A DNA stretch of 60,755 bases, filler included, from Sanchytrium tribonematis (lineage: Eukaryota), in NCBI GenBank assembly GCA_018985235.1. It is 5 parts of 5 records of this genome, joined end to end, with 100 filler letters (N's around TTAATTAATTAA, not from the genome) between each part and the next. Parts side by side here need not be neighbours in the genome. Positions count along the whole stretch, not along the records: positions 1 to 12,188 come from JADGIG010000228.1; positions 12,289 to 24,360 come from JADGIG010000229.1; positions 24,461 to 36,511 come from JADGIG010000230.1; positions 36,612 to 48,655 come from JADGIG010000231.1; positions 48,756 to 60,755 come from JADGIG010000232.1. One strand, 5' to 3'. Each line of letters opens with the position of its first letter. Position 1 is the first letter of the stretch. The translations under genes were made by a program, and so were the position numbers. The notes below the pieces were generated by a model. It did no database searches and was not told the origin of the DNA. It saw only the letters and a program-made list of their open reading frames with translations. This document shows, piece after piece, positions 2,020-58,179 of this stretch.

Positions 2020-3895
2020 TTATTTTATATTTAAGCGATCTGTATATTTAAAAAGGTCCTCAGCAAATCTACGCTCTTCCTTGGAAATGGCTGATTGCAG
2101 TAGCCACAATTGGACCAATTTTTTCCCATGAATATTGCATAGTGCAATCATGTAACGATAAAAGGGGTCTTTATAATTATTACAACCATATACATCAAAA
2201 TAAACTTCAAAGCTATCCAAATTGACACTTGTCATAAATTTCTGGTACAACTTGAATAATTTAGGGATCTGATCTTCCGGTCTATCAACTTTAAATGTGT
2301 TTGGTAAAAATTGATTAGAAAGAATATCCACGACGGATATAATTCCCGTAGGAGAGGTATTGGCTAGCTTCAGGAATGCGAATTCTGCATCTTCGAACTT
2401 CTTCAGTCTTTCAGAAACCAAGCCATAATGATACCACTCGGTCTGTTTAAATTGAGTATTAGGATTAGATTTGAGCTCGTTCTTGAAGCCAAAATACATT
2501 TTTAAATCTTCGTAAAGAAGCTATGTTAAAATAAAATACGATAAATAGATCATCGAGCCATCTTTCACACAATCTTTTGCTGTCTTCAGAATCTATCAAA
2601 TTTTGTTGCTCCATGACAAAAACCAAGTTTCTCAGCTCCAAAAAGCCGTCCCATGATAACTCTTCCACAACATTAACTAAAATTCCATAAGCTAATTTTA
2701 AGAATTTTGGCATAGATTGATATTGCCTTTGTTTTTTAAGATATTTGGAATCTGTGCCATCTGGAATTAATGTAAGTTCCTCTAAAAGATCTATGTTTTC
2801 TCTTATTGGGCAATATCTTGCGGAGGGTTTTAGTGTTCTATAGAATTCAATTTTCGGTTCATCGTCAAAATGAATCATTGGACAGGAATTCAAAACAATT
2901 AAAGCAGAGCCAAATTCTCTGAGTTTAATTAATATGGTTGCATAGTCGAGCCAAACTTTGGCATTTTGTGGCGAAATTTTAATAAGCATTTTTGATACAA
3001 TTTGAAGGCTTTTAAAATCACTTTTTGCCTTGAGATAGTGAAATTCAAAATGCAGCACACTCGATAGGTCTTCATGATTATTTCCATAGTCAAATATTTC
3101 AGCAAGCTCATTAAATGCAAGTTGCTCTTGCTGAGTGTTTATGAGACCCTGTAAGTAAGCAACCTTTATAAATCTATCGTAATACAATTTCGGTAGTCCA
3201 TATTTCGATCCTTCAATCCAATCTAACATTAAATCGTTTCGTCCCAAATCGTTTAAAATTTTTTTTATATAGAATAGCAAAAAATTCCCATCTTCCGAAT
3301 TGACCGCAAATGTAGTACTGGACTCCGAATACACATAATGGGCGCTCTTTAAGAACTTAATTATAGATCGTTCATCAGGAAAAACGTTTTCTCTAAAAAG
3401 AGGGCCCAAGGTGCTACTAACAGGTACATCAAGGGTGTAGGATCTTAAAACAGAAACAACATACAATTCATGCCAAAAAAGTTCGGAAAACTCCTCAATC
3501 TTTACTTCATGTCCTTGTTGATTAACTCCGTAGCTATGAACACCACCAGGTAATGAAACTTGAACTCTAACATCGACAGCACTAAATGGATTAAAAGTGC
3601 TCAATGTTCCCTTAATAACACTTTGATCCTCAAACCATGCCTTAATGTTTTGAGAATTTAAAATTCGTGCAATTGTTGCAGCCATAGACGATACGCTAGA
3701 ATTGTCCAGCCCTACAAGATGAAGAAAACAACTCTGTTTATAGCCATCAGTTTTATCTCCAGCCATTACATCTTTATCGCTATTAATAATATGCATATGA
3801 TCTGGTGGCCCCAGCTGCTTAAAACTGCTAATAAATTGACTACGAACTAACAACGATTCGCCAATACGGCCCTCAAATGCCGCAGCCATTGACAT
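2020..3895 (-). CDS. BCH1: Exomer cargo adaptor, ChAPs family (Bch1/Bud7-like); 2 exons, ~618 aa
   Basis: LGPPD, FNPFS..DVRV...PG, ALIVLNSCPM, RLCERWLDDLF; removing 2521-2539 joins ORFs 2465..3916 and 2020..2499 into WLDDLFI|LLYEDLK, restoring the family motif WLDxLFxxLYEDL. Confidence 0.88.
2521..2539 (-). other. 19-nt spliceosomal intron (gtattttattttaacatag), phase 0
   Basis: GT..AG; excision restores frame and the conserved ChAPs motif. Confidence 0.88.
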
Positions 3896-4045
3896 TTGCA
3901 ATTTTGTATGGAACAAGGGTGTGAATAATTAATAAAATTTAATTTATAAGTCAAGTCTTTTCGAATTGCTATGCTTTTGATGTTCAGTACATCATTGTAC
4001 GCGTAGCTTTTGTTTCACTGAAATAGAGTGGCTTGAAAATTTTGG

Positions 4046-6824
4046 ATGTCCAATTCTGTAGCTCCCCTAGAAATAAAAACATCTCTGCGGGGCTCTAAGC
4101 CTGATTTAGCTGTCGAAAAAGTAGTTCTTAAAGTAATTTTGCCTCGCGGTCAAACTACAGCTGTTGCTGTAAGTAAAGATGCCTCTTTTATGGAAATTTT
4201 GGATCGCGTTTGTCAAAAGAGAAATATATCTATAAATAAGCATGTATTGTTCATCAATATTCCTGAACAATTAAGTGGAGATGATGCAGATGAGGATGAG
4301 GAGCCTCAGATGGAAAGTATTTTGGTAGATCTAGTCCAGAAATTATCTGATTTTACAATTAAGAGTGTCGAACTATGTGAAGATTTACATGCTGAGATGA
4401 TTCAAATTAGACCTGACAACATCAAAGCAGAAGTTGTAGATTTATCCAAGAGTTTAGCATCACCCACAAAACTTATTCAAGAAAGAAGACAGTCTAGGCA
4501 GCAAGTGTCACCAACAATTATAAAACCAGTTCAAATACTCAAAGAAGACAAAGGTGTGATTAAATCGTTTTTCGGAAAATACTCTCCCACATCCACATCC
4601 ACATCTCCGTCCAGTCTCTCTAATAAAAAAAAGAAAGTTCAAAATGAGAAAAGGTCTGACTCAATCACCGAAAAACATAGTGAAGAGAAAGAAGGCTCCA
4701 GCTTTAGCACTCTTGGACGAGGAGGCATATTGGGGACTCTTAAGCGACAGCCAACTTTAGAACGTCGCAAAAATGATACTTCAATCTCGATTTCCAGCAA
4801 TCCAACTGGATTTGATAAGCTAGAACTGCAAGCAAATCAAATTGAAAACACTGATTCTACACACAACTCGATTGCACCGTGGGACGAGCCTGAAAAGCCC
4901 CAGCAGAATCAAATGGAGGATATTGCGCCTTTTGCTTTCCGACCACATACGCAAAGTTCCAGCTCTCAGCATGATCTATCGTTCTCAATAAAATCTAAAT
5001 CAGAGGAAAGCTCATTAATGGAGAAGGCGCATTCATTTAGGACAGTAGAATCCGAAAAGAATGATAGCGAATCACAAATTAACACTCCATTGGATGAAAA
5101 AAATTCCATTCACAGCATTCCACTTTCTGAGGATACTGCACTTAGTCCTGATTCTAAAGCTTCAATAAGGAAAAAAGCCTCAATGTCATCGATGACTTTA
5201 AGGAAACAAACTTTGACTAAAAAATCTAGGAGCGCGATTCAGCAATCTACTGACGTTTTCATTTTCGAAGTCAGCGATAATCAAGGTGTACCTCCAGAAT
5301 TACAAATTCCTGCCAACATGAAAATGGTTCGCATTTGCATCTCATTGTATGACAAAGACACCCAGATTGTTTTAAAATGCTCGCAGGAAACCATTGTGGA
5401 CGACATTTTAAAGCATCTTTGTGAAAAAAGGAATTACGATTACCAGATCCATAGTTTAGAGCCAGAAATTAATGACAATCCCTTGGAATTGGATAGGCCA
5501 ATATCTTATTACACTGAAAAATTTCAAATCTATGATTATGCCCTTATTAAAGGCGATAAAGAGTATACAATTAGATCTTACATGGATGGTGATAAAGAAG
5601 TAGCACTGTATCAAAAGTACAATAATGAAAATTCAATTTTAATGGCAGCGGCTCTCGACCGTATGATTGAAATATTGACTACCTCCGAATGCGATGACGA
5701 TTTTCTAGATACTTTTTTAATGTGTTATCGTAATTTCTTAAAACCTATTGAATTTTTCGACATCTTGCTTTCTAGATTTGATGCTCAACTTCCAGAAAAT
5801 GCCACACCAGAAGACATTGAGTATTATAGAGCAAATATACCAGTTTTACAGTCTCAAATTATGAAAATTTTCGACGTATGGATAGTCAAATATTGGTTTG
5901 ACTTCGCTGTGAATTCCGACTTGAAAAACGATCTAATTGATGTTTTAGATAGTCTCAGTGTGGATGCTGTACTAGGAGACCAAGCTATATCATTAATTGA
6001 GGCAGTCGCGTCTGAAAACGAAAAATTCGAAAATCTTGTCAACATTAGCAAGGCATCTAATAGTAAATCAAAGCAAATAGACAGCATGCTTATTCAATAC
6101 TCTTCAGATGAAGTTGCAGAGCAGCTTTCTCTAGTTAATTCGCAACTATATCAAAGTATTCATCCCATAGAATTTTTGAATTATATTTGGCGCAAAAAAG
6201 GTGAAGAGGAAGAATATCCTACTCCAATGTTAGATAGGTTTATATCAAGGTTTGATAACGAATCGTATTGGGTAGCCACAGAAATATGCGATACCAAAGA
6301 TTTAAAAAAACGGATTCAAATTCTCACCCAAATAATTTTAGTAGCAAAGAAATGCATAGATTTAAATAACTTTTTTAGCGCATTCAGTTTACTGGGCGGA
6401 TTGAGCATGCTTCCTGTTGAAAGACTTAAAAAAACTTGGAAAGGACTTAGTGTTGACACCAAAAAAGCATTTGAGGATGTACAAAAATTTTGCGACCCTT
6501 CAAAAAATATGAAAAGTTACAGAGATAAGTTAGGTATTGCTTTACCCCCAATTGTTCCCTTTTTACGTAATTTTCATTTATTTAGCCATTTATCTAAAAG
6601 ATCTAACTTTTCTTAATGATGGAAATGAAAAACGGATAAGAGGAATGTTAAATTTTGATAAATTTAGAATGATGCGGAGAACCGTTCTTGAAGTGATGGA
6701 GAGCGCCTTAATATGCTATCCCTTTATGCCGAGTCCTCATGTTCAAAATTATCTCAAAAAGCCAAGGATAGAAAAGGATTTTAAAGTTTTAAAGGAACTC
6801 AGCAAAATATTAGAGCCCCAATAA
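4046..6824 (+). CDS. Ras-family GEF (REM + CDC25 domains) with two N-terminal ubiquitin-fold/RBD-like segments; 2 exons, ~919 aa
   Basis: REM (FLDTFLMCYRNF), CDC25 (VAEQLSLV, SYWVATEI, LNNFFS, RLKKTW); removing 6567-6585 gives PPIVPFL|PIYLKDLTFLNDGN, the canonical motif. Confidence 0.9.
6567..6585 (+). other. 19-nt spliceosomal intron (gtaattttcatttatttag), phase 1
   Basis: GT..AG; excision fuses ORFs 4046..6616 and 6537..6824 and restores VPFxxxYLKDLTF. Confidence 0.9.
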
Positions 6825-7045
6825 ATTTTTTTAAAACATGACGAACGACTCATTTTAGGCCAAAAGTATCATGGTTTCCACTACTTCACATTCAACCTCA
6901 AATAATAATTTAGACAGTCAGCAGCAAATGATTCAGCATTTATTGGAAAGATCCATGGGACAAAGGAGACCACAGAATAGATTAAATGTAAACGCAGTAT
7001 TTAAGAGACGAAACGAAGAGAGGGTACTGCGCTAATAAATCGCAT

Positions 7046-10000
7046 TTATTGATATGATCTATATCCCTGTAATCTTTCTAATTCAATGGGAGACATGGCT
7101 CTTTCGCTTCCAGGAACGAACATAGCTGGGCCATTAAATTGTTGATTTTGCTGATGATTGCTTGGTACTGTTGTCACACTTGACATGCCCTGATTATTAT
7201 ATCCACCCCTGAAATAACTTTGAGTGTTGGGAACATCTGATTCCGAATCCAGATGGCCGTCTGTATTAGCGACACCAGCGCTTACCAATTGGTCGCGCAA
7301 CACAACACCTCTTTTCTGCAATTGTTTCCACTCTGCATATCTTTTCATTACTATTTTTGATGAGTCAAATAACCCTTCTTGTTCATCATGACCTCTATCA
7401 ATTCCTGCAATCAATCGAGTTTCACCCCAGCTAAATAAGTATATTATACGTGAAATCATCAAAGTGCCAAAATGCATAACTTGGTAAAACCAAATTCCAA
7501 ATGGGAAGACTCAAAAGATACACTAGCATCCAGCCAACGTAATTCCATCTTTTGGAAGTCATTGCTATTAGTAGAGCGGGTAAACCCAGAATCGCCGCCA
7601 AAAGGATTAATGGGATAACCGCAGGTTCCCAAATAATACTGCTTATGATAAGCCAAAATGTAAATATAATAGCAGCAGGAAGCACAACAGTCCCAACTAG
7701 TTCCATGAAAATCACAAACTGCATGCTTATACAAAATGTACCACACAAATCACTTACCAAGACTAATTCAAGTAAATTGTGCACTGTAGAATTAATCCAA
7801 CGCCTTCTTTGACTTAACAAAACTCTAAATTTATCAGGCACTTCAGTTTTACACAGCGCTTGTGGGATGAACATCATTTTTCTTCGAGGAAAAGTCTTGA
7901 GCATAATAGTGGTTAAAAATCGATCTTCGCCAAGCAGATATAAATTCTTCTTATGTAAGGTGTCTACGACATTCTCGCTGTATTGCTCTACAATTTCAGG
8001 ATTTCCCAAAATCGGTACAAAGAATCCATCTCCTTTTGGAGCTTTGATTCTATATGCGCAAAAACAACCAGGAAGACAAGTGACACCGCCAAATACACTT
8101 TCAAAGGCTTTGGCATTGTGATGAGCCAAATAATACTCAAATACTTGTATCATAGAAACCCAAGAAGACCACTTGTTGGAAATTCTGGTTTCGCCACACA
8201 ATCCAATGATTGCGTCATCTCTGGTAAAAGCGCTGACTAAAATTTTCAGCGAGCTTGCTTCTACACGAGTATCTGCATCAACCATAACACAAGCTTCGAA
8301 CTTGTCAGGATTATTGCGACACAAGTATTGTATTTTTTGAAATAAGTCATATTCCAAAGGTGTCATACGATCATCAAATGTCACTTTTTGCAAAAAATTC
8401 ATCAAAACGATTTGAGAATCTCTTTTACCTCTGTTACCAGGTTTAGAATTAGTTGCTTCTTCTGGTGTCCCTGTCTTAACTACAGTTATCATTGGTACCC
8501 TGTGATTAGCCGAATTATAATAGCCTGCAAATATCTTGGCCATGTTATGTCTTTTGCTACCTTCAGCAATACTCACATAACTGTAAGCCACAGGATCGTT
8601 TGGAAATGCAGGATCTAAATCCATCATTCCAACTGCAATTTCAGGAGTAGACCTTTCATTACCGCTTCCTTTGATGATACCATCACAAATAACTAAGATC
8701 AATTTATGCGTATCACTATAATCAGTACAAGCAAGCGATTCCAAAGTATTACGAAGCCCTTCTTCATCTTCTGAATACGCAGTAACAAGCAGGATTGTGT
8801 GCATAACTTCTTCCTGGTAGAACATTTCGGGGTGTGGCCAGGCTTGAGGAAACTCAGAAGACGCATCACTCATTACAGAATTACGCTTATCTAAGCTGGT
8901 CTGTGAAGGAGAATTCTTCAAGTCAAACGAGCTCATTCTATGTTTGTACTGACTATAAGCTCCAAACATGAGGCTCTGGGACTGTTGCCCTCTCTTTTGG
9001 AATTTTTGCCAATATTCTTCCTCTTGAAATTTTTTGTTCATAAAATATTCTTTTTCACTTTCTGATAATGGCTTTCCTATTCGAGCACTTAAAAACCATG
9101 CATAAAATATAGCTAAAATAAAGCGAATCAAAACAACTCCAATGATAAAAACGAGACTAACATATAATACAATGTTGGTGATTATGCAACCAGCAGTGTC
9201 CGTGTCAATCTGCGCGATTGTAAGCATTGACTCAAAACACTTTCCAATTTGTCTAGAATTATCATCTTTGTTAAGGTAAAATGTAGCGTCTTTCCCAATA
9301 AAGGAAGACTTGAAGTCGATAAAATTAAATCCGTTCAAGTTGCTTAGGTCAATTTTAGTATTTGAAATATTCAAAAGGTCAAATTTAGATGCATCAAGTA
9401 CAAAGTTGTTGTAAATAAAATAATTGCTAGAATCCTGAACTTGATCCCAGGGCATAAACACATTGACTGTTTTTCTCCACGACAAAACCTCTCCAAATGC
9501 GCCACTATCATGACAAGCTTCCTTTACATCCGAAATCTTGGTTGCTTTATTGACATCTGCACCGCCTATTGTGCAGGGAAAGATGGGAGTTGTTACTGCA
9601 TCCGTGCCAAATAACACCGAACAGGAAGAAGGATCCTGGAACATAAATGTCAAATCTCTTTGGGATGAACTGAGTCCAGATAATTCCCTCATATCTATCC
9701 CACCTCTAGGGAGTTTCGAAGATCCTCCAGGATGATTATATTGTGAAAAATCGTATCCTTTACCTCTAATAACTACCTCTGCACCATTTAAAGTATCAAA
9801 CGAGACTCGTAAAGGCGCAACTCCGCACACAGTTTGTTGAAAACCAAAAGTCAAAAAACCGACCAGCAAGGCCAGTAAAATAATAACGAAAACTAAGCTT
9901 ATTTTCTCTCTCCAGGCAATCTGCTGTCCTTTTGTAGGCAATCCGCATTTTCGTAAGCAACATAGAGGAATACAGCAAGTAACGCACAAGGCAAAATTCG

Positions 10001-10229
10001 ACCATATTCTTCTTGTCGCCGATATAGGCTGATCATAAAAATAGGTGCGCTTCATTGTTGTAGGCACTTTTCGCATTGTCTTAATATATTCTCCACTTTC
10101 TTGTTTTCTTTTAATACTTCGTTGGCGAGGAATTTGAGATCTACCTTTAGTTAAAGACCCGTTTAATTTGCTTACGAAACCGGGCTCTTGACTCGAATGC
10201 TCCAACGGTGCAAATTGATCGGAATTCAT
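7046..10229 (-). CDS. CHS3: Chitin synthase, division 2 (class IV/Chs3-like); 2 exons, ~1054 aa
   Basis: AWREK, KPGNRGKRDSQ, VDADT, QVFEY, TCLPGCF, LGEDRFL, SQRRRWINST; removing 7431-7449 gives WHFDDFT|WGETR. Confidence 0.92.
7431..7449 (-). other. 19-nt spliceosomal intron (gtataatatacttatttag), phase 2
   Basis: GT..AG; excision restores the conserved DDF(S/T)WGxTR motif. Confidence 0.92.
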
Positions 10230-10298
10230 TTTTTAAAAGTTTGAGTGCAAATGTTTTAAATTGAAAAACGATATCAAATATTATCCAATCAAATTACT

Positions 10299-11024
10299 TT
10301 ATTCACCATAAAACTTGCTTTTCAAGTCGACGATATTAACACCACGTTGAATTGAAATATCCTGTATAGATCGTTGAAACTTTAGAGCCTGCATCATTGC
10401 CTTCGACACATTCATGACGTTTGTACTTCCATGAACTTTTGATCCAATATCAAGAATTCCTGCACATTGGCAGATAGCATGTAAAACATGATTGCATCTA
10501 AGCCCATAACCAACTGGGACCGTCCTTAATTCTAAAAGTGTTGCCTTAAATCTCGTCGTTGCATCATGATATAATGTTCTATTTTGGAAGAGAGGCACGG
10601 ATACCAAATTATGGTACGCATCTGCCAAAGCCTTGGGAATCGCATCCCTTGGTTGTTTAGCTTTCCCAATACCTAACCCAACTAAGCCATTCTGATTTCC
10701 AATAACTGCTAGGACTCTAAAAGACGATTGTTTTCCACCCTTGGTAACACGCACAACTCTATCGACAGCCAGGACGTGTTTTTCGTAGTTCCATATTTCT
10801 TTCCGAATTAGGCCCTTGTCGCTTTTGTTCTCGTTGATAGGTTTCGGGAGTTCTAAGGTAAGATCTCTTCCGAAATCAACCATTGATCCTGGTGTTGAAA
10901 ACTTAAAATTCGGCAAGAGATTTGGTGGCAAATATTTTCCAAGCTTGAGATTCTGGTAATTAAAATTTATGTCTGTTTTCCATAAGTCATTTGGTGTCCG
11001 GATATTTGGAAGTCTTTTCAACAT
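10299..11024 (-). CDS. MRPS5: Mitochondrial ribosomal protein uS5m
   Basis: RVVRVTKGGK...VLAVIGNQNGLVGLGIGKA; GYGLRC...CAGILD; S5 N and C domains. Confidence 0.88.
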   Translation of the reverse strand: MLKRLPNIRTPNDLWKTDINFNYQNLKLGKYLPPNLLPNFKFSTPGSMVDFGRDLTLELPKPINENKSDKGLIRKEIWNYEKHVLAVDRVVRVTKGGKQSSFRVLAVIGNQNGLVGLGIGKAKQPRDAIPKALADAYHNLVSVPLFQNRTLYHDATTRFKATLLELRTVPVGYGLRCNHVLHAICQCAGILDIGSKVHGSTNVMNVSKAMMQALKFQRSIQDISIQRGVNIVDLKSKFYGE

Positions 11025-11263
11025 TCGAGGGGGTAATTAATTATCAAAATGTTCATAATCTGAGTAGCTTAGTCTCCTAACAAAATTGAACTTATGTCTA
11101 TGGATAATAAATGTTCAATCTTTATACCTAAGTTAAAAATTAAAAAGAAAATCTTACCATTTTGCATTTACAAGATAATGAAAAATATTATACGAATAAG
11201 TTTACTAATAATCTGACTCAAGAATAAATTGTTTCGATTATGAATCTTAGCTCAAGAGGATGA

Positions 11264-12067: not shown

Positions 12068-12085
12068 TTTTTACTCCTTAATAAT

Positions 12086-12188: not shown

Positions 12189-12288
12189 NNNNNNNNNNNN
12201 NNNNNNNNNNNNNNNNNNNNNNNNNNNNNNNNTTAATTAATTAANNNNNNNNNNNNNNNNNNNNNNNNNNNNNNNNNNNNNNNNNNNN
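12189..12288. other. Artificial contig-joining spacer
   Basis: 100 nt: N-run, TTAATTAATTAA (stops in all six frames), N-run. Confidence 0.98.
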
Positions 12289-13347
12289 TGCCAGTCATCA
12301 AAAAAGACTGCAAGACATATCAAGAAAGTAGTCCAGGATGTGGATTATGGACTTTATCCTATGCATACAGTTGCAATGGATGTAGTTGGTAAATTACCAA
12401 CAATAGAAACAGATGGACAAGAATATTCATATCTGTTAGTTATAGTAGATATTTTTACTCGATGGTGTGAAGTGATACCATTAAATGGATTAACAGGTCT
12501 TGAAACACTGGAAAAGTTTAAAAATGAATGGATCTCAAGATATGGATGACCACAAATGCTTTTGTTAGACAATGGAACTAACTTTACAGCAAACGAATTC
12601 AGAGCGTATTTAGATAAGGAGAATATCGAATATCATTTTACATCTCCAGGATATAAACCCGGAAATGGTTCTGTAGAGAGATTAAATTTGACAATATTAG
12701 ATTACGTCAGAGCAAATATCTTTGATGACAACTGGTTAGAATCACTAAACAAAATATTGCCAGTACTAAGATTTTCATATCGTAGGTCTATTGATACAAG
12801 CACTTATGAATTATCATTTGGGCTCAAAGCTGAGTGGGGAAGTAAAACTGTCTTAAATAGACATAACCACTTACTTACAAGATGGAATGACATTAACAAT
12901 AATGCTTCCTTAGAAAATTATGTGAATCGAGAAGTAACAAGAAAAAGACTGGAATCTAAAAAGCCAGCAATTCCAATTCAATTAAATGATATGGTATTAG
13001 TACCAAATCCAAATGACAAAACTAAAATTGATAAAGAATTTGTAGAACCATACAGGGTTGTAGAGATTTTGCCCTACGGAAATATACTAACGGATAACGG
13101 AGGCCGATTCAATCAAAACCAAGTTAAAAGAATACAAGATAAAATTACAAGTGGAGATGTAGAAAACATCAACGCTTTATACGAACTACCGATGACAAAA
13201 TCTGGTGGGAGTGTCGCATCCAACACGTTAAATCAAAGCGTAATTGGATGTTATTTAGATCAAAATGTTTTAATTAATCTAGTCAATTCAAAACAAGAAT
13301 TGTGTTCTTTTTGCGGTTTGAATATAAGTGACCATACATTTCTTTAA
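12289..13347 (+). mobile_element. Ty3/gypsy LTR retrotransposon integrase remnant (in-frame TGA at 12547-12549)
   Basis: rve core: VAMDVVG, LVIVDIFTRW, RYG*P..LLDNGTNF, NGSVERLN; GPY-like EPYRV. Confidence 0.9.
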
Positions 13348-13620
13348 TTGACTTATCCTTCTAACTTAGTGTCGCATCCAACACGTTAAATCAAAGCGTG
13401 ATTGGATGTTATTTAGATCAAAATGTTCTAATTAATCTAGTCAATTCAAAACAAGATCCAAGTCCTCTAATAAGGCTTGGATCCCAATCAGATGATGGCG
13501 CATGCTTAACTAAACAAAGCATGCGCTCTAAAAAAAGGTATATAAGCGCGAGGGCCTCATAAATAAATAAGTAATTTATTATTAATGACTTTTACTTCAA
13601 ATCTTCTCTTTAACGATATC
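13212..13620 (+). repeat. Probable 3' LTR region with duplicated 87-bp 5' end (13212-13298 and 13370-13456); right boundary approximate
   Basis: Purine-rich GGTGGGAG then TGTCGCATCC...; the 87-bp block recurs with 2 mismatches; TATATAA (~13539) and AATAAA (~13562) follow the second copy. Confidence 0.65.
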
Positions 13621-14698
13621 CATTGTGTAGATGATGGTGCATCTACGTCCACCAATAGTTGTGGAGCGAATTACGAAGAATGTAATTGCGCATGTTTGAT
13701 GGATATGGCCGTGTCAGGGCCACTTTACTTAGGCTGTTAATCTTTCTCCAAGTTTTGGCTTTTGCATTGGGCTTGCTATATAAATATTTGTCCCACAACC
13801 TGCCGCGTAATATCTGCTCTCTGTACTCATTTTAGTACAGCTGTAATCTATCATCCAAATGCATAGGAAATTAATTTTAACTTTCATTTTTTTATAAATG
13901 AGGCCTTGTACCTCATTCCTAACCTTGAAATAAATTTTTGCGGATTTTATAAACATTTGGATTCTCGACATTTCATTAGTCGAACATGTTAGCATCTGAT
14001 TGGCCAATTTCTTCTTCTCCCCAAAATTAAAGCTATTTTGTTATTTTGCAAATTTTTTTGCAAATCACAATGAGGAAAGCACGACAACAAGTAGTAAATA
14101 AGTGATATATTGGTATCATTACAAACCGTGCTCTCATCGACATAAGGATCCGAATCCATGTCTGATTCATAAATCTCCCTTTGAGGTAACTCCCAGCTTC
14201 AATATCTCCTGAGTGCGTCCCTGCTTCGTAATAGGTGAACACGTCACGAAATTGACCTGGATTTGGATTGACAAATCCAATTCCAAACCTACCGAAATTG
14301 TGCAGTTTTTCCGGATTTGGATTGACAAATCCGAACAATTTGGAAATCGAAGGAGATCTCCTCAAAACATCAACGTCGAAAAAATAAAGACGATTCTAAC
14401 TATGTACTTCTAAACAATCTAGACCTCAACTATCAGGTTATGAGACTACGTGATAAAGGGCCACTATATACCCGTTAATATAGTTGATGTACATCTAAAA
14501 TGATGTTTTACAGATTTTGTTTGGTTAAAATGTGGCTGGTGTACATTAGTTGCCTACTAATACATTTATTTAAGTCTCAAGCTAGATTTAGGCGTGAATT
14601 CAATCTTATTTATTTTTTGATTCACTTTAGTGTATTTGCTTCATTGATTCTTCAGACAGAATGCTTTTTGCTATAAATGTGCTGTACTGGGTATATTC

Positions 14699-15055
14699 TT
14701 GGATATGATGAGTGATAACACTAGAGGACCTAACATCACAACAATCCCTACTATTCCAGACATTCTGTTCCTAAATAGCGACAATGAATATTGTGTTAGT
14801 GCTTACAGGCTTTGCAAAGAAACATTATTAGAAAGATTTAAAATACTTGGTGATTCGGCCTATCCCACCAGACATTATATTGTAAAAGCCGCAACAGATA
14901 TTAGCCCTGAATCTGAAAGATCTGTAATAGAGAACTGTTTTACCCAATTGAAGCAGCAATGGCGAATACTCATGAAGTGACAAGGTTGTCATATTGATTC
15001 TGTTCCTGTACTAGTGGTTATATGTTGTAATCTTCTCAACTTGTATAAACGCTAA
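14699..15055 (+). mobile_element. PIF/Harbinger transposase (DDE_Tnp_4) C-terminal remnant
   Basis: ILGDSAYP...RSVIENCFTQLKQQWRIL, followed after a stop by a VICCNLLNL-like tail. Confidence 0.8.
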
Positions 15056-15074
15056 TTGTGACTAAGTAATTGAT

Positions 15075-15390
15075 TTATTCAATATTACTTTGCAACGTCT
15101 GAACTAACGATTCAAAACTTTCAATCAATGGTGAAATGTTGATTGAAGACACGATATCCATTTGTGATGATTGTTGGTCAGTTGTTCCAGAAACACTAGA
15201 CATAGAAGCAGCAGGTTCGGCTTCAGCAGATAAATTCAAGATTTCATTTACAAGAGCCATGCTATCAATTGCAGACAAGCCCTCATTTTCTCTTTGCAAA
15301 TCCATAAATAGTTCCCTCTCTTTTTTTTGCTTGTCCAAACGATTAGCAGTTGCAATCTCATTCAAAAGATGGCCAATTTGCTTCCGTTAG
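15075..15390 (-). pseudogene. Fragment convergent with the Harbinger transposase, possibly the element's second ORF
   Basis: Tail-to-tail arrangement typical of two-ORF Harbingers; no domain recognised. Confidence 0.3.
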
Positions 15391-15494
15391 TATAATGACG
15401 AAGAACTTGAGTCAGTAACATTAGGTTTTGGACAACGGTGCCATTGGTGCTTCAGTGAAGAAACTAATATTAGAAGTGCCAAGAATTTAAGTAC

Positions 15495-18321: not shown

Positions 18322-18639
18322 AAAGTTGTGAATATTATTGATTATATTTTGCCTACTAATGATGTGAGAATCTAGTTTCGAGTCAACTAAGTTTTTGATA
18401 ATTTCAGAAGACTTCTTTTGTTTAACTTTTTGAATTTGGGAGATGAAGCTTTAGCCAATTCTTTAAATGCAGGTTTTGGTTTGACCTCAGTTTTTGCAAC
18501 TACATTGTTCTCATTTTATAACTCGGTTTGCATTTAAGGATCTTTCGAGTAAAATATCAATATTTTCGTCATCATATATCGTGGTAAATGTTTTCGAGTC
18601 TTTTTCTTCTAGATTTAAAAACATTACGTCATATGATGA

Positions 18640-48755: not shown

Positions 48756-50443
48756 GGTGGAAATTTGCCAAATATTTTATGATCTGATTTGATTCTCAAA
48801 GTTACCAAGGCTGGTGGTAACCCCATTTTGCCAAATGTACCATTCAAGTGATAGCCTGCTGATGAGAAATCAATAAATCTAAATGGGATGCCGGTGACTT
48901 GTCCTGCTGTATTACAAGTGGCGTAATCAGAATTGCAACAATTTTTGGTAATTTTTTCAAACACATTTGGAGCAATTACATCTGCATTCATGGCTTTTGC
49001 GAAGTCAACTACATAGTCACAATCCGATGGTGTACTTGATACTGCTTGTTTCAATTGATTACTAGTACATCCTGTGATATTTGCCAATGAATTTGCATCT
49101 AAGTAATTCATTGATAAATCACACGATTGAATATTCACTACTCCGTAATCTTTAATCAAAGATGTGAAATAGTTATTGAATATTGTCAATAACTTCAAAG
49201 TCAAGCCAGTAATATTCAAAGTACCACTCAATAAATTGTTTTCCATTCCCAAATATTGCAAACTTTTGCAATTAGTCACATCTATAGTTCCATTAAGTCG
49301 ATTTTCATCAACATACAAGGATGTCAATGTGTCTGGCATTGGAATCAATGGTCCACTGATAACATTTCTATAAATATAAAAACTGTTCAAATTTGTAGTC
49401 AAGAATTCTCCAACTACTCTGCTAATCAGGTTCTCAAATATCTCAAAATACGTCACAGCGGATGGAATCAAGGATACATTTAATGTACCATATAATTTGG
49501 CATTGTACAAACTCATTCCCGTCACTCTACCAGCTGTACATGTCATATACGGATATGTGCAACAATTTGAATTTAATCTTTGGAATTTATCAGGAGATGT
49601 CTCAGGCATGTGTAATTCTCGAGCCATTTGAACAATCAATGCGCAATCCTCTGGTGCAGTTTGAAGTACAGCAACACTGTTTCCACATTTTGATGTCAAA
49701 TTTGCAGTCGTAGATATATCCATAAATGGATTGTCAAGGACGGTGCAGTCAGTTGGCAATGTTCAAAAATATAATGCAGTAAAATTGTTGTAATTTGCGT
49801 AAATACTTGTAACTTTGGTTTTTAATGTCAAACTACCACTAAAACTGTTTCTTTCTAGCCCGATTAAATCAATTTTAGGTGGTAATTCTGGTAGGACATC
49901 AGTAAACAAACAATCAGCCAATCCCAAAAAAGTCAAATTCATTGGCCAATCAGGTAATTTGGTGACCATTTTATCAAATTTCAAAGTTGTGAGTGAATCT
50001 GGCCATTTCGTATCTTGAATCAATTTTGAGAATCCCAAATACACATAGTTCAAACTTTGAGGCATCTCAGTTACATTCAATGTAACATAGGATGTAGTCA
50101 TTTGCAAATATGTCATATTGAATGGAATCTCATTCATCAGACCACCATAAAATTGATTCGAGTCTAAAACTTGTAAATACGGAGGAAGTACATAAATGGT
50201 CGTATTTGGCTCTTTCACAGTTTGGTACGAAGAACTTTGCATCGAATATCCATTGGTACTTGTCCATCTTAACTCTGTGACCCTGTCATTTTGACAAGTT
50301 ATTCCCGGCGTGCTGCAACAATCTGCTTCCATTTGCTGGTAAATGGTGGTATATTTCTGTTTGAAATTCAATTGTCGTGCTAGTTTTAACACTACTGGAC
50401 AATCAATTGAGATTGACGTTGCAAGTAGCAACGCGATCAACAT
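48756..50443 (-). CDS. Secreted/surface LRR protein with three Cys-capped modules; one in-frame TGA (49763-49765); 3' truncated
   Basis: Signal peptide MLIALLLATSIS; DC...CC...TC...(R/Q)VT cap three times; plant-type LxxNxLxG repeats; both ORFs in the same frame. Confidence 0.75.
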
Positions 50444-50611
50444 TTTAGATGGGTAATTTTGATTCAATCACTTTTTTACTGTGACTGTCCAATCAAATAA
50501 AGAGCTCCATGCCAACTTTGAGAGAATATTTGACGTTGGAATTTGACATGGTATGGGAGTCGGTAGCAAGGAGATTATTTTTTATTTTTTGAAACCTAAC
50601 CATATTTGCAA

Positions 50612-51115: not shown

Positions 51116-51142
51116 TTTAATTCAAAATTAATAAATTTGAGA

Positions 51143-51520
51143 TTATTTATTTGAAGAGGTAAATTTAGTAACAGCTTTAGTTCCTTCAGAGACAGCATGT
51201 TTAGCTAATTCACCAGGTAGAATTAAACGAACAGATGTTTGTACTTCTCTAGATGTGATGGTGGATTTTTTGTTGTAAGCAGCCAATTTTGATGCTTCAT
51301 TTGCAATTCGTTCAAAGATGTCACCTACAAATGAGTTCATGATACCCATAGCTTTGTTGGAAATACCAGTATCTGGGTGCACTTGTTTTAATACCTTGTA
51401 AATATAAGTAGAATAAGTTTCTTTTCTAACCTTACGTCTTTTTGCTGGTCCATCGGATGTTTTCTTTGCTGCCTTTGCTGGTGCCTTTCCTGCTGGTTTC
51501 TTTTCTGCTTTAGGTGCCAT
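51143..51520 (-). CDS. HTB1: Histone H2B
   Basis: [23 protein letters not shown]...[19 protein letters not shown]. Confidence 0.98.
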
Positions 51521-51754
51521 TTGTTAGTGATGCAGGGGTGTTTGCTTATAAACCATTTTTACAACAGATGATTGGTGCATATCTTGAAAAATACTAATAA
51601 ATTGATCTGATTGGATAAAAACAGGAAAAGTAAAAGAGATATGTGATTGGATGGTGTGTGGCCAATCAATAAAGGCGCTTACTTTTTGAGTTTTAAGCCA
51701 ATCAAATCACAGTTTGACCCTTTATAAACAGTTTGGCGCCCCCAACTATAAAAA
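51521..51754. promoter_or_regulatory. Bidirectional H2A/H2B promoter: five CCAATCA boxes, two TATA boxes, one E2F-type site
   Basis: ATTGG at 51571, 51610, 51646; CCAAT at 51662, 51698; TATA at ~51546 and ~51723; TTTGGCGC at 51732-51739. Confidence 0.75.
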
Positions 51755-52168
51755 ATGGCAGGAGCAGGAAAAGGAGGAAAGAAAGAAGCAGCAGGTGGCA
51801 AAACTAAATCAAGATCTTCAAAGGCAGGTTTACAATTCCCAGTTGGTCGTATTCACAGATTATTAAGAAAAGGAAACTATGCCCAACGTATTGGTGCTGG
51901 TGCTCCAGTTTATTTGGCAGCCGTATTAGAATACTTAAGTGCTGAAATTCTTGAATTGGCAGGTAATGCAGCTAGAGATAATAAGAAAACCAGAATTATC
52001 CCAAGACATTTACAATTAGCCATCAGAAATGACGAAGAATTAAACAAATTACTCGGAAATGTTACCATTGCACAGGGAGGTGTGTTGCCAAATATCCACG
52101 CAGTTTTATTGCCAAAGAAAGTCAAGGGAGCTGGAAAAGGACCAGCTGATGAAAGTCAAGAATATTAA
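51755..52168 (+). CDS. HTA1: Histone H2A with H2A.X-type C-terminal SQEY
   Basis: [17 protein letters not shown]...[16 protein letters not shown]...SQEY. Confidence 0.98.
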
Positions 52169-52223
52169 TAAAAAGAAATTGTTTTTTTTTATTTTTAGTG
52201 ATATTTTTTGAAACAATCAAATA

Positions 52224-53085
52224 ATGCAGCGACTTCCATTTGATCAGGAATTGCGTCAATTAAAAAAGATTTTAAAGCAATATGAGAAGGAATTCTTTAA
52301 ATTCCATCGTCGTAAACCATCCAAATCCGATTGGACATCCTGTAGAAAAGCCCAATATAAAAGATACGATTATCTCAAACAGCGCATTGAAAATAAAACA
52401 GAAATGACTGATTTAGAGAAATTAGAATACATACCCAAATTAGCATTCAAATCTATGGATGAACCACCCACTAGAATAGTCACAACGACTAAAATAGAAA
52501 TACAAGCCACGCCTCATAAAAATAGAGAATTATTGAGTGTCAATGAGGAAGATATATTCATCACACCTACTAAACAGGACTCTGCTGTTATTTTGACACC
52601 TATTAAAAGCCAAGAAATTGAATTTATTCCTTGTTATTCCACTGAGAAACAATTACCTCAAATTTCAATGGCAAGTTCCCCAACTCCTATTAAATCCAAC
52701 TTACTATTTAGAACACCTCGAAAATCACTTAATTTATCCATTTCCAATGATATTAATTGGGCGGATTTGGATTCACCTTCAAAACCATGTGAAAATATAG
52801 AATTCAAAATTCCCGATGAATTTCTGTCTAAAGAGCTTAGAGCATTTCAGAAAGAATCAACTAGTGATCATAATGATGTCTCTAGTGACTTTGCGCCATC
52901 AGATCAAGGTATTTTAAACTTAATTAGAAAATGGATCTCCTACAAAAAAGAGGAAATTAAATAAACGAGCCAAGGCAAATAGAGTCATTAAATCATTGAG
53001 GGAGACTGAGGATAACGAGGTTTCCATTGTAAATAATAGAAAAATGACTAAAGTGTCCAATAATTACGTCAGATTCAAATTATAA
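52224..53085 (+). CDS. SLD2: Sld2/Drc1 (RecQL4 N-terminus-like) replication protein; 2 exons, ~280 aa
   Basis: LKQYEKEFFKFHRRKPSKSD...YKRYDYLK N-terminal domain; many TP/SP CDK sites; removing 52909-52927 adds the C-terminal VSNNYVRFKL motif. Confidence 0.75.
52909..52927 (+). other. 19-nt spliceosomal intron (gtattttaaacttaattag), phase 1
   Basis: GT..AG matching the consensus; excision opens a 52-codon exon ending in the Sld2-like NNYVR motif and TAA/AATAAA. Confidence 0.78.
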
Positions 53086-53129
53086 ATAAAACTTAATTCG
53101 GAATCTTTTCAAACAAGTCGGATTTCAAG

Positions 53130-54082
53130 ATGCCATTTGGTAAAATTGATTTATATACTCCAAAGTACTTTTACACGTGTAGTTTGGGAGGAGCTTTATG
53201 TTGTTCATTGACTCATTTTATAGTCACGCCATTAGATTTGATCAAATGTAGATTACAAGTCAATTCAAGCAGATATCCCACATTATGGAGTGGATTTAAA
53301 GACATTATACACACTAAGCAAGTATTTAGGGGTGGATTGAGTACATTATTGGGATATGGAGCACAGGGTAGCTTATTATTTGGCAATTATGAAATATTAA
53401 AACATTACATTTCTGAGCATGTTGGACATGAAAATGCTCATAAATATAGACCATTGATCTATTTAGCATCTTCCTTCATAGCAGAGACTATTGGTGATGT
53501 CGCATTGGCACCATTTGAAGCCATTAAAGTGCGAGTGCAAACAAATGATACATTTCCAAATAAGTTGATACCTGGATTGTCAGCCATATACAAACAAGAG
53601 GGCATGAATGGATTCTACAAGGGTTTTATGCCATTATGGAGTAGACAAGTACTTTATACGATGAGTAAATTCGTGGCATTCGAGAAAATTGTAGAAAACA
53701 TTTATTTGAAATTGGGTCAAAATAAAGAAGATGTCAGCAAATCCAAGCAATTAGGTATCTCATTTGTAGGTGGGTATATAGCAGGTGGTATTTGGTACTC
53801 ATTTTAGTATTTTGCGCAGTAGTTAGTCACCCAGCAGATGTTTTAGTAAGTAAAATGAACACAATCACCAAGTTAAAGAATGAAAGTAGCACTCAATTAC
53901 TAAGCAGAATCATAAAACAGCCTCAATTTAGTATGTGGACTGGTATTGGGACCAGGATATTGATGATTGGCAGTTTAACTGCAATTCAATGGTTAATTTA
54001 TGATACATTTAAAGTGGCTGTGGGTTTGCCAACGACTGGCGTATACAAGTATGAGAAGCCAATCGTCGCAGTTGATTTCTAA
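53130..54082 (+). CDS. Mitochondrial phosphate carrier; 2 exons, ~310 aa
   Basis: TPLDLIKCRLQV, APFEAIKVRVQT, SHPAD; removing 53788-53807 gives GGYIAG|VFCAVVSHPAD. Confidence 0.92.
53788..53807 (+). other. 20-nt spliceosomal intron (gtatttggtactcattttag), phase 1
   Basis: GT..AG; excision restores frame and the conserved third carrier repeat. Confidence 0.9.
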
Positions 54083-54155
54083 TCGTGACCTAATAAATCG
54101 TGAAATATTTTCGCCAAATGGCGGTTTTAAACATCCACCCCTCAAACACTAGAAA

Positions 54156-54530
54156 ATGCCTTTACTTCCACTTGAATTCGACAGCTCATTTAAAATACTA
54201 CTACAGAAGTTGCTCCACAAGATTATTGCTCGTGACAAAATGGCATTGTCCTCCATTTTACACTTATCTCGTCGCACATGCATTGATTGCCATCAAAAAT
54301 TCCCACGCAACTTTGAGTTCTGTAGACATCGAGCTAGTGCTCATGGTCGCAGTATTGTATGTTCATTATGCAAAGTACACTTAAAGGGTGCCGTACGTAA
54401 AGACACAAGAATCTTGCATTTATTACGCTGTGATCCATTCATCGAATTATGTATCGAGTCAGGCATTACTGAGGATGAACACATCAAAGTATCAGCACAC
54501 GTCCATGGCAATCGTATATTCCTCATGTGA
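54156..54530 (+). CDS. Small Cys/His-rich (zinc-finger-like) protein
   Basis: C..C...H...H and C..C...H...C patterns; CCC motif upstream, AATAAA at the stop. Confidence 0.55.
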   Translation: MPLLPLEFDSSFKILLQKLLHKIIARDKMALSSILHLSRRTCIDCHQKFPRNFEFCRHRASAHGRSIVCSLCKVHLKGAVRKDTRILHLLRCDPFIELCIESGITEDEHIKVSAHVHGNRIFLM

Positions 54531-54550
54531 ATAAATCACCATAAAATACA

Positions 54551-54817
54551 TTATTTACTCAAATGTCGTTTTTTATCATCATGCACGACTTGATTGCGTA
54601 ATTCCAACAACATCATTTCAATATCATTCAATTTTTCCAGTTTCTTGACATGAAATTCTTTTAATTTCATCTCCTGTTCATTTTTCATTTTAGTAAAATC
54701 TTCATCTATTTGCAAATGCCATGGATATAATACTGTCATTTGAAATGTTAATGCAGTAGTCGCTACTGCAAAATTGATATATGGTAGCATTTTAGAAAAG
54801 AATGAATGTCGTGGCAT
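54551..54817 (-). CDS. Small conserved fungal single-TM + coiled-coil protein
   Basis: INFAVATTALTFQMTVLYPWH..IDEDF resembles a small uncharacterised fungal family. Confidence 0.65.
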   Translation of the reverse strand: MPRHSFFSKMLPYINFAVATTALTFQMTVLYPWHLQIDEDFTKMKNEQEMKLKEFHVKKLEKLNDIEMMLLELRNQVVHDDKKRHLSK

Positions 54818-55083
54818 TCTAATGAATAATTTCAAGTTTCAGGAATTCCGAGCTTATTGTAAATTGTTCGGAATTGTATTTATTGATACATAATTACTAT
54901 CAAATTCCCTCATCATTTGGAGAAGAGAGGAAAAGGTGAGCGAAGGAATCAAAAGGTTCATAATCATTCCTCATTGGTTCCAATATGACATCATTTGATC
55001 ATCAAGGAGAATAACGTGATGTAATGACTTTAAAATGATGCCATTTCCATTAGATTCGCAATTCCATACAATCGGCTATTTAT

Positions 55084-56751
55084 TCATTCATTTCTACTGT
55101 TTCTTTCTCTTGTGACTTCTCTTAGAATCTCTAAATATTGTTCAATTCTCAATGTTTCTTTTTCGATATCAACCTCCATTTGCTTTAATTCATACTCTTT
55201 CTGCTGCAATTCATAGTCCAATGCCTCATTCTGTCTCAATGGTATATCGTTTCTTTTAGTATGTTCAGAATGCCATTGATCCAAATCTCCCAATTTCTTC
55301 TGCATTTCATCAAATTTTGCTTCTACTTCTTTCAATTCCTCATTCATTTTTGTAATTCGATCTAATTCTTGCTGTGCCACTTTCTCATCATGTGATGGTA
55401 CATGAGATATCCCGCTGTATTCGGGATGAGATGCTTTTTGCTGTCGTTGTTTGGCAATATATAATTTTCTTTGTGTTTTCTTTAATTCTTTGTCCAAATT
55501 CTGCAATTTCTTGTTTCTCTCATTCGTATCTTCGCTACTGGATTGTCCCACGCCCTTGAATCTTCTATTTTTACCTATAGCTCTTGTTTTTTGTGGCGAT
55601 TTTAAATGATTCATTGGATCAAATCCATCATATTTATCGTCATCTTCATGCTCATCTGCACTGTCATATTCCTCTTCACTTTGCAGTTCAGCATCTGTCT
55701 CTCCTTGTTCTGCGGTATCTTTATTGGATGGATCGAATAATTGATAATTACGCCTTTTGGGCATTTCTTGTGATTCAATACCCTCATTGGTTGCTTCGTT
55801 CCCCATATTAATTTCATCAAGTGCTGCTTTTCTATCATTCTCAATTCTACGACGTTTTTCCTTTGATTTTTGAAATTTGTAATATTTCATCAATTGATTT
55901 ACCAAATCATTCAATTGTTGCTGTGATGTATTCGGAAATCTTTTGGCCAACTCATTCATTGCGAGATCAGGATTGGATAAATCTACATACTTGACCAAAT
56001 TATGCAATTGCTTACGACTCAGTTTATTTCCATTTGGAAATTGTTGCGATGCTATTCTTTTCGTTGTTTTCTTTTTAGCTTTACTCAATTTCTCTATTCT
56101 ATTGAAATTAGGTAATACAAACTTATCAAATGGTAATTCTGGTTCTTCTGGATCAGTTTCTTCATTTGGTGCCACCACATTATTTCCTTTATTTTCTTTT
56201 GGATCTAATTCTTCTTCAATTGAATCAGGTTCTTCGTTTCCAAAATGTTTGCTTCCCAGCTTTTGACTGACAGCTTTCTCTCGATTCTTCATTTTTGAAG
56301 ATTTTTTTGTCAATTGCATATATTTCTCTAATTTAATTCGCAAATCTTCTAAATACTGATCTGATATTTTAGGATATCTTTGTCGTAATATATCCTTTAA
56401 AGTTGATTCAGATTTACCAAAATCTATTTTAGCAAGATCTTCCAATAAAATTGCCATTTTTTTACGTTGTTCCTTATTCTTTAATTGATAAGCTGTTTGA
56501 CTTGCCAAGTCAGAGCCAGGTCGTCCATTTCTTTGTCGTATTGGATTTTCCTTGATGCGATTTTTACTAATTTGTTCGGATCTGGCTTGTGATTCTTTTT
56601 TGCGCTGTCTTTTATTTGAAATACCTTCAAGACGTCTTTTGAACAATCCCAATCCAAATGCAATCCAAAGTACAATCAACATCAAACACGGATATATGAA
56701 GATGATGTCATTTGTTTTGAAAATGACGCCATCCAGCAAATATGGCATCAT
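55084..56751 (-). CDS. N-terminal TM-anchored, charged coiled-coil protein with a duplicated ~50-aa helical module
   Basis: 555-aa ORF; hydrophobic N-terminus; internal repeat. Confidence 0.7.
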   Translation of the reverse strand: MMPYLLDGVIFKTNDIIFIYPCLMLIVLWIAFGLGLFKRRLEGISNKRQRKKESQARSEQISKNRIKENPIRQRNGRPGSDLASQTAYQLKNKEQRKKMAILLEDLAKIDFGKSESTLKDILRQRYPKISDQYLEDLRIKLEKYMQLTKKSSKMKNREKAVSQKLGSKHFGNEEPDSIEEELDPKENKGNNVVAPNEETDPEEPELPFDKFVLPNFNRIEKLSKAKKKTTKRIASQQFPNGNKLSRKQLHNLVKYVDLSNPDLAMNELAKRFPNTSQQQLNDLVNQLMKYYKFQKSKEKRRRIENDRKAALDEINMGNEATNEGIESQEMPKRRNYQLFDPSNKDTAEQGETDAELQSEEEYDSADEHEDDDKYDGFDPMNHLKSPQKTRAIGKNRRFKGVGQSSSEDTNERNKKLQNLDKELKKTQRKLYIAKQRQQKASHPEYSGISHVPSHDEKVAQQELDRITKMNEELKEVEAKFDEMQKKLGDLDQWHSEHTKRNDIPLRQNEALDYELQQKEYELKQMEVDIEKETLRIEQYLEILREVTRERNSRNE

Positions 56752-56755
56752 CTGT

Positions 56756-56796
56756 CATATCACATGACACATCACATGGTACATCACATGATACAC
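56756..56796. repeat. Three ~12-nt tandem units containing ATCACATG immediately upstream of the 555-aa gene
   Basis: catatcacatga cacatcacatgg tacatcacatga. Confidence 0.6.
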
Positions 56797-56815
56797 CAAA
56801 TGTCAAAATTACAGT

Positions 56816-58179
56816 TTATTTCAATCTCATCTTTAATTCTCTACTATATTTCCCATAATAATGTGAATACATGGGATAAATACTCATTAAAATCATCAAT
56901 GCAATAAAAATAGATGCAATTGGATCAAATATTAAATATCCGGTATAATGAATTAATAAAGTGGATATAATGACACCTAAATGAATTATAAATTACCAAC
57001 ACTGCCTAGGGTATCTGCTAAAATGTGTAGAAAGACAGCACGCATGTTGGAATGTTCATGGGAATGTTCATGAGAATGTTCATGGGAATGCGAATGATCG
57101 TGGCTATGGCTATGGCTGTGGTCATGTTCGTGATCATCGTGGTCGTTGTGGTGATGCGCATCATGTCCATGGTCATGTCCATGATCGTGTCCGTGTCCGT
57201 GATCATGTGCTTCATGAAAGAATACAACGCCAATTAAATTCACAATTAATCCACCAATACTGACCCCCAATAATCCATCTAAATGCATTTCTTGTGGATA
57301 AAACATCCTTTCAATGCCTTCCATGCTAATCATAAAACTAATCAAGACCAATAAAATGGAATTGATAAAAGCACCTAAAGATTCATTTTCATTGGTGAAA
57401 TATAAACCAATGCCTAATGCCAAACAATCAAAAAACATATGGATGGAATCACTAATTAAGCCTAATGAGTTGGTTAAATAGCCATAAATCATTTGGATGA
57501 GCATATATGAGAAATTTAAGAGGAGGAAAATAAATAATTTTTTGGAAGATTGGGTGTGTTTGAAATTGATGAGGAAATGATGGATAAAATGGATGATTAA
57601 GATGGTGGAGATGGATAAGATGTATAACGAATCATTTAGAAATAGTGTAGTTAATAAAATATGGATAATATTGGCAAAATGGATGGAAATAGGGGATAAA
57701 TTGGAATAATGTAAAATGAGAGAAATAGTGATTAAAAAAATCCAATCTTCTAATTCACCATAAAATATACGACAAATGGATTCAAATGCGATTAATATGA
57801 ATAAATAAATGTCATTTTGAGGGGATATTTGATCTTGAGAGGGAGATGGGGAAATTGGCAAATATTGTGATTTGAGATTGGTGTGGAATAGATAATAGGG
57901 GATGGTAAATATGATGAGATAATTGGATTCAAAGTACATGATGGTATAAATGAGGATAGAAATGAGTAAATAGGGTATTTTGGGTAATTTGATTTGCAAT
58001 TGTTTTAAATAATACATGGATAATATGTGAAATGGATTAGATAATGCACACATTAATAGTAATGGATCATCTTTGGAGAGATAGAGCCATGTAAATAGAT
58101 TATATGGGAAATGATGGGCCAAAGCAGAAAGAATGGCCAGTTTCATGGAGAAGACTGAAAATACTGAAATCTGAATCAT
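56816..58179 (-). CDS. CDF zinc transporter, Msc2/ZnT5/ZnT7-like; 2 exons, ~447 aa
   Basis: TNSLGLISDSIHMFFDC, His-rich loop, AVFLHILADTLGSV|GVIISTLLI...FDPIASIFIA after removing 56977-56996. Confidence 0.9.
56977..56996 (-). other. 20-nt spliceosomal intron (gtaatttataattcatttag), phase 1
   Basis: GT..AG; excision restores TM5-TM6 (HxxxD..GSVGVI, DP). Confidence 0.9.

Follow-up and report, generated by a model that had tools for sequence, protein, structure and literature searches.

Putative 19-20-nt spliceosomal introns near the 3' ends of genes in a sanchytrid fungus

The DNA analysed here, referred to as the window (60,755 nt in all, filler included), consists of five pieces of about 12 kb from a sanchytrid fungus, joined by artificial linkers of the form N/TTAATTAATTAA/N (12189-12288 and three similar places). 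It has a GC content of 34% and is gene-dense, with gaps between genes mostly below about 150 nt on the gene-rich pieces. Six of its genes each contain one very short GT-AG segment that breaks the reading frame and that we interpret as a probable intron. Three are neighbours: the ChAP (exomer) gene at 2020-3895 (minus strand), with 19 nt at 2521-2539 in phase 0, at 0.73 of the coding sequence (CDS); the RBD-RasGEF gene at 4046-6824 (plus strand), with 19 nt at 6567-6585 in phase 1, at 0.91 of the CDS; and the chitin synthase gene at 7046-10229 (minus strand), with 19 nt at 7431-7449 in phase 2, at 0.88. The other three are an Sld2/Drc1-like gene at 52224-53085 (plus strand), with 19 nt at 52909-52927 in phase 1, at 0.81; a mitochondrial carrier gene at 53130-54082 (plus strand), with 20 nt at 53788-53807 in phase 1, at 0.71; and a cation-efflux (CDF) gene at 56816-58179 (minus strand), with 20 nt at 56977-56996 in phase 1, at 0.88. 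The carrier we take to be a phosphate carrier, a label that comes from an earlier sequence-only reading of this DNA. A seventh GT-AG segment, a candidate of 19 nt at 58846-58864 (plus strand), is found in the 3'-end region of an orphan membrane-protein gene at 58216-58981.

The sequence-only reading had proposed the six segments, of 19, 19, 19, 19, 20 and 20 nt, and their coordinates, lengths and coding-strand ends all proved correct, as did its claim that their removal repairs a frameshift: when the segment is kept a stop follows 3-24 codons past the junction, and when it is cut the frame continues for 52-166 codons. All six begin with GTA(T/A) and end with TAG, and their interiors contain 9 G+C in 92 bases (~10%), compared with 35% in coding DNA. 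Every one of them has an A at -6 or -7 from its 3' end, preceded by YYN and equivalent to position +14/+15; the ChAP segment has an A at both -7 and -6. Assembly indels, which the earlier reading had named among the findings that would refute its claim, were not found at any of the six sites in Logan contigs of the DNA run X1, which cover 1279-11109 (in one piece), 52158-54917 and 56635-59052 and bridge all six. The last two contigs show no differences from the window, and the seventh site is bridged as well. Since X1 is possibly the window's own source, this is a check by re-assembly and not an independent sample. Exon 2 is conserved like exon 1, with 53/60 versus 70/80 residues of RasGEF identical to the sanchytrid protein P0212, and 51/60 versus 62/80 residues of chitin synthase identical to P0002.

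The continuity of protein motifs across five junctions, also claimed by the sequence-only reading, was upheld by comparisons that fix the junctions independently of the splice signals. In ChAP, the WLDxLFx motif is followed by xLYEDL in 83 of 84 non-sanchytrid homologs, while 28 of 31 non-sanchytrid RasGEF homologs have VPFL-P without an insert, and positions 153 and 154 of the Pfam profile meet at the RasGEF junction. Profile positions 152 and 153 likewise meet at the CDF junction, and the chitin synthase junction has no gap in an alignment of 16 sequences. For the carrier, searches of the PDB gave no close relative and we therefore used the register of its internal repeats, in which, of the near alternatives, only the 20-nt cut aligns repeat 3 in register with repeat 1, a 23-nt cut being off by one. 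The sixth case did not fare as well: the C-terminal motif that excision was said to recover in Sld2 could not be confirmed, exon 2 alone having no Pfam match at E<=1, and the excision is suggested by the segment's motif and by the frame, which after the excision closes 45 nt short of the next ATG. Background frequencies taken from 23,889 intronless coding nt give ~0.003 per site for a GT-AG segment of specified length placed exactly at a particular coding position, and ~0.028 per site for any 10-60-nt GT-AG of a frame-fixing length class. Such placements are so infrequent that the five exact coincidences are not attributable to chance.

We surveyed 32 genes (38,330 nt) for segments of 15-30 nt matching a relaxed form of the motif. 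Seven of the 35 candidates lengthen a frame, and all seven are 19-20 nt long, being the six segments and 58846-58864. In-frame candidates of 15, 24, 27 and 30 nt were present, and none of the 35 measured 18 or 21 nt. About one gene in five thus carries such a putative intron (6-7 of 32), and the earlier statement that no longer intron is needed holds for all 32 genes. The seventh segment has the full motif, and its removal takes the open reading frame (ORF) from 226 to 248 aa (+22 residues); a search of representative sequences with the orphan protein returned the protein itself and one weak partial match, with no full-length homolog, and we regard the segment as an unverified candidate intron. 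Two strict-motif 19-mers on the transposon-rich piece were rejected, the one at 12842-12860 because it interrupts an open integrase-like frame and the one at 18609-18627 because it offers no clear repair.

The sequence-only reading had suggested an early-diverging fungus, and our trees place the organism in the Sanchytriomycota with Amoeboradix gromovi. In trees of RasGEF and chitin synthase (22 rows each, chosen from the matches), the window and three sanchytrid rows form a 100/100 clade. This clade is sister to the Blastocladiomycota at 100/97 in the RasGEF tree; the chitin synthase tree does not resolve its placement, and neither tree resolves the order of branching among the four sanchytrids. 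The nearest relatives of each gene are A. gromovi and two ENA proteins, with identities of 81-83% for chitin synthase (catalytic part), 57-61% for ChAP and 82-83% for RasGEF. The organism is thus a sanchytrid, a member of a group of algal parasites, and is distinct from A. gromovi.

The relatives' proteins were called as plain ORFs, so that introns appear in them as breaks. The ChAP ORFs of all three other sanchytrids part from the family alignment at the codon where the window's ORF does so, and their next residue is Val (GTN). By back-reading, we asked which GT-AG length lets each run-on tail encode the family's next residues. The known 19 nt was recovered in the window's own gene, used as a control (score 48.9, next 6.1), and 19 nt was also ranked first for P0125 of A. 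gromovi (34.4, next 15.4) and for the ENA protein P0124 (14.3, next 3.7), whereas the ORF of P0126 stops too early to yield a length. The RasGEF site is broken at the window's codon in all three relatives too: P0212 has a seven-residue in-frame insert that fits a 21-nt intron (GTA, A at -6, YAG), the stop codon of P0214 agrees with a 20-nt intron carrying that motif, and the A. gromovi protein P0213 stops within the site. From these protein comparisons we infer that the introns of at least ChAP and RasGEF were already present before the four sanchytrids diverged. Synteny between these two genes and chitin synthase (2020-10229) also appears to extend to the relatives: in A. gromovi, RasGEF and chitin synthase carry one and the same contig name, and the ENA homologs come from contigs of matching length (32751 and 11126).

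JGI metagenomes were scanned with the alignment of sanchytrid ChAPs, and none of the 224 pattern matches was confirmed; a scan with a RasGEF motif yielded two loci (L001 and L002), neither of them sanchytrid. The chytrid-like contig L002 (reverse strand) carries the donor GTAAGT at the site of the sanchytrid RasGEF intron and ends 9 nt later; its RasGEF gene has upstream introns of 219 and 192 nt, both missing from the sanchytrid gene. The position of the RasGEF intron is likely to be older than the phylum. In the public model of a Nowakowskiella RasGEF (P0222), Arg and three extra residues stand at the junction, possibly a mis-annotated intron.

We consider it highly probable, on the combined DNA and protein comparisons, that the segments are U2-type spliceosomal introns shrunk to near the smallest size at which the spliceosome can work. 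A GT donor and an AG acceptor stand at the excision boundaries in all six, boundaries that homologs or repeat register fix in five. Branch points typically have a YUNAY-like context near the 3' end, and the positioned A after YYN agrees with it at the sequence level in 6/6 segments and is compatible with it in P0212 and P0214. In the mechanism that we propose, the GTA(T/A) donor would be read by U1 and U6, and the YYNAY element at +14/+15 would pair with U2 and supply the branch A, giving a lariat of 14-15 nt. The TAG found 6-7 nt past this A would serve as acceptor, a separate polypyrimidine tract not being involved, and spacing (intron definition) would compensate for the weak signals. The sanchytrid ancestor would have lost most of its introns (6-7 are left in the 32 genes examined here); some 3'-proximal ones would have survived and shrunk to 19-21 nt. 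Two other classes of intron were considered and rejected. U12-type (minor) introns have the donor GTATCC and the branch TCCTTAAC, and the donors here are GTATTT, GTAATT or GTATAA, none with ATCC. Introners occur as almost identical copies, flanked by direct repeats, at sites that differ between lineages; 4-nt end repeats occur in none of the seven segments, and two of the sites are common to four species.

The window itself encodes a spliceosomal helicase, Brr2/SNRNP200, in an intronless gene of 1779 aa at 29699-35038 (minus strand) that scores 1151 bits to human Brr2 versus 926 to ASCC3 and 830 to Slh1. Compared with the 2136 aa of human Brr2, its N-terminal region is shortened, and the PWI domain is a weak match (E 0.002). 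The annotation table of A. gromovi includes Prp8, the U2AF small subunit, Cwc25, Isy1 and Brr2 (PMC8371127). Hsh155 and Prp16 were not found by name in the available part of that table (PMC8371127).

Several observations weigh against the interpretation as U2-type introns. Splicing is deduced from DNA and protein comparison only, and an Rfam scan of the window gave no snRNA gene or other match. The motif is only about two-fold enriched (9 matches of 19-20 nt window-wide versus ~4.5 after shuffling), and its definition came from the six segments themselves. The Sld2 segment is the weakest and least supported of the six. The lengths in relatives were deduced from protein tails and not from DNA, and were obtained in four of six relative-by-gene cases, with none for P0126 or P0213; that of P0124 in ChAP relies on four exon codons and that of P0214 in RasGEF on the stop-codon fit alone. 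The metagenomic locus L001, which is close to Anaeromyces, has no intron at the RasGEF site. None of the three other sanchytrid clusters has the chitin synthase intron, so not every intron position is old, and this site alone could be a gain. Finally, short microsporidian introns are spliced at <20% (PMC6349667), so efficiency may be low in the sanchytrid as well.

The six putative introns are at 0.71-0.91 of the CDS, all in the last 30%, and 156-498 nt separate them from the stop. If positions were uniform, the probability of six all lying at >=0.71 would be ~6e-4, a value calculated after the data were seen. Screening the starts of 29 genes yielded three poor 5' candidates (16, 24 and 29 nt, with 8-12 G+C and none beginning with GTA), all of which were rejected. 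Because fungi lose introns preferentially at 3' ends (PMC8476143) and the first-described Encephalitozoon cuniculi introns show an extreme 5' bias (PMC6349667), the clustering is the reverse of the usual pattern, and it contradicts the one expected from reverse-transcriptase-mediated loss (PMC8476143). Splicing may depend on 3'-end processing (terminal-exon definition), or intron loss may leave the last intron untouched. A bolder extension, which we put forward only tentatively and think has perhaps a modest chance of being right, is that the whole of the Sanchytriomycota splices only introns of 19-21 nt, kept only near 3' ends, as the spliceosome would engage them only as last introns through coupling to 3'-end processing. 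If true, no smaller class of introns would be known in fungi, and the 5' bias of intron-poor fungi would be reversed, which would provide a natural test of the determinants of minimum intron size and of terminal-exon definition.

Of the alternatives, the one that fares best accepts the segments as spliceosomal introns and regards them as a short minority beside ordinary longer ones, with the 3' clustering a small-sample effect. It overlaps with our preferred interpretation, as it concerns scope and not whether the six are introns. The sample is indeed 32 genes and not a whole genome, and the positional test is post hoc, yet not one of the 32 genes needed a longer intron, the six segments (seven with the candidate) and the four lengths deduced in relatives are all 19-21 nt, and both the small P value and the poor yield of the 5' screen argue for a real bias. 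We judge this alternative unlikely.

It seems very improbable that the segments are retained in mRNA and passed by programmed frameshifting or ribosomal bypass, or that the truncated proteins are the real products. Short microsporidian introns are mostly retained (PMC6349667), and a 3' position leaves 70-90% of each protein intact. However, a simple frameshift would add about six residues within conserved motifs, an insert missing in the same 28 of 31 RasGEF homologs and in the 13 non-sanchytrid ChAPs aligned at the junction. Segments of 19, 20 and 21 nt at the one RasGEF site would require three different shifts, as opposed to a single splicing rule, and GT, AG and the A at -6 persist across species with 17-40% divergence in protein sequence.

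Excision by a non-spliceosomal route, either the Ire1/tRNA-ligase pathway (HAC1-type) or the tRNA endonuclease, is in our view extremely unlikely. HAC1-type introns are of a similar size, about 20 nt, but Ire1-type introns have CNG-CNG cleavage loops at both ends, and CNG-CNG is found at either end in none of the seven segments, which instead combine a high AT content, strict GT-AG ends and a branch-like A, in a genome with a Brr2 gene. Least credible of all is the idea that assembly or amplification errors, or lesions in pseudogenes, caused the frameshifts and happen to have GT and AG at their ends, for although the introns are known here from DNA and protein only and X1 is maybe the window's own sample, the X1 contigs span the six sites at a depth of 44-128 with no indel, the segments are insertions of 19-20 nt relative to homologs and not slips of 1-2 nt, exon 2 is conserved, and three other species, known from different data sets, have breaks at the same codons, which largely refutes it.

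The sequence-only reading knew of no description of such introns, and our literature search, with subscription journals outside its coverage, likewise found none for sanchytrids. In the available text of the sanchytrid genome paper the word 'intron' occurs only in the references, and once in the supplements, in an annotation text (PMC8371127), and the available parts of PMC10459994, PMC9616733 and PMC12592215 contain nothing on sanchytrid introns. The sanchytrid introns would be the shortest that we found reported in fungi. To the earlier reading we add the 3' clustering, the fixed branch-like A, the seventh candidate and the breaks common to relatives. That reading had also supposed that gene finders with a minimum intron length of 20 nt or more would miss most of these introns; the actual cause is different, as the ORFs of the genome paper came from TransDecoder run on genomic contigs (PMC8371127), and the published sanchytrid proteomes missed the introns for that reason. 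EukProt holds the run-off (truncated) forms of ChAP, RasGEF, chitin synthase, the carrier and Sld2; the CDF run-off form was not found there by exact look-up. With only the run-off form in the public proteome for five of the six genes, claims of domain loss or gene content in sanchytrids need re-annotation.

Elsewhere in the window, the piece at 12289-24360 contains fragmented mobile-element ORFs (retroelement RNase H, Pif1 helicase with Ulp1 protease, and DDE_3 transposase), and no host gene was seen on it; the Pif1 helicase and Ulp1 protease ORFs are presumably Helitron-like. An intact 582-aa ORF at 42415-44163 (plus strand) has a P-loop-like motif and no Pfam match, and we assume that it resembles Crinkler-type proteins. 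At 48758-50467 (minus strand), two secreted-looking leucine-rich ORFs share one frame with a single TGA (49763) between them, and no short GT-AG was found around this TGA. They likely belong to a repeat family, since run X1 has divergent copies. A divergent, intronless H2B/H2A pair at 51143-52168 has three to four times its neighbours' depth in X1 and is for this reason likely multi-copy.

As precedents the sequence-only reading had cited heterotrich ciliates and nucleomorphs, and the sizes that it gave for them stand, but it understated the precedents close to fungi, where introns of ~25 nt in microsporidia and ~30 nt in Rozella are on record (PMC6349667). The heterotrich Stentor coeruleus has introns of 15-16 nt that resemble the sanchytrid ones in being GT-AG and AU-rich, with a GUA start, a branch A 6 nt from the 3' end and a narrow size range (PMC9505925). 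The sanchytrid introns are, however, 3-5 nt longer, with the A at +14/+15 as opposed to +10/+11 and a proposed lariat of 14-15 nt versus a branch loop of 10 nt, and they occupy the last 30% of the CDS, whereas Stentor, from an unrelated lineage, shows a 5' bias (PMC9505925). Karyorelict introns have a mode of 17 nt (bioRxiv 10.64898/2026.07.09.736142). The nucleomorph of Bigelowiella natans has GT-AG, AU-rich introns in a similar range (18-21 nt), but there the introns are densely packed, almost 900 of them in 283 genes, lack a discernible branch A and belong to the relic nucleus of an endosymbiont (PMC6009652), while those of the sanchytrid are sparse, have a positioned A and occur in the main nuclear genome. 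The parasite Mikrocytos mackini also has uniformly tiny introns (16-17 nt); unlike the sanchytrid it is a rhizarian, its metabolic and transporter genes lack introns and its spliceosome comprises 17-19 proteins (PMC10245619), whereas the sanchytrid introns are found in two transporter genes and a chitin synthase gene.

Closer to fungi, microsporidia and Rozella are likewise reduced parasites on the fungal side with GT-AG introns, and microsporidia are intron-poor, but their introns, ~25 nt in E. cuniculi and ~30 nt in R. allomycis, are longer (PMC6349667). Because sanchytrids are true fungi sister to the Blastocladiomycota, and the introns in the chytrid-like ortholog measure 192 and 219 nt, the shortening of sanchytrid introns is likely independent of that in microsporidia and Rozella. 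Myxobolid myxozoans and Dicyema, which are also opisthokont parasites, have introns with a median of 22-27 nt, a donor reduced to GTa, a weak A-based branch site and U2-type machinery (PMC13644364). They differ in being animals and in having somewhat longer introns of a broader range, in classes analysed from 20 nt, and the available part of that study describes no 3' clustering (PMC13644364). A lineage of true fungi would thus join the organisms near the lower limit of intron size, below microsporidia (~25 nt) and at or below myxozoans (median 22 nt), and the branch A at -6, as in Stentor, points to a common physical limit that was reached independently.

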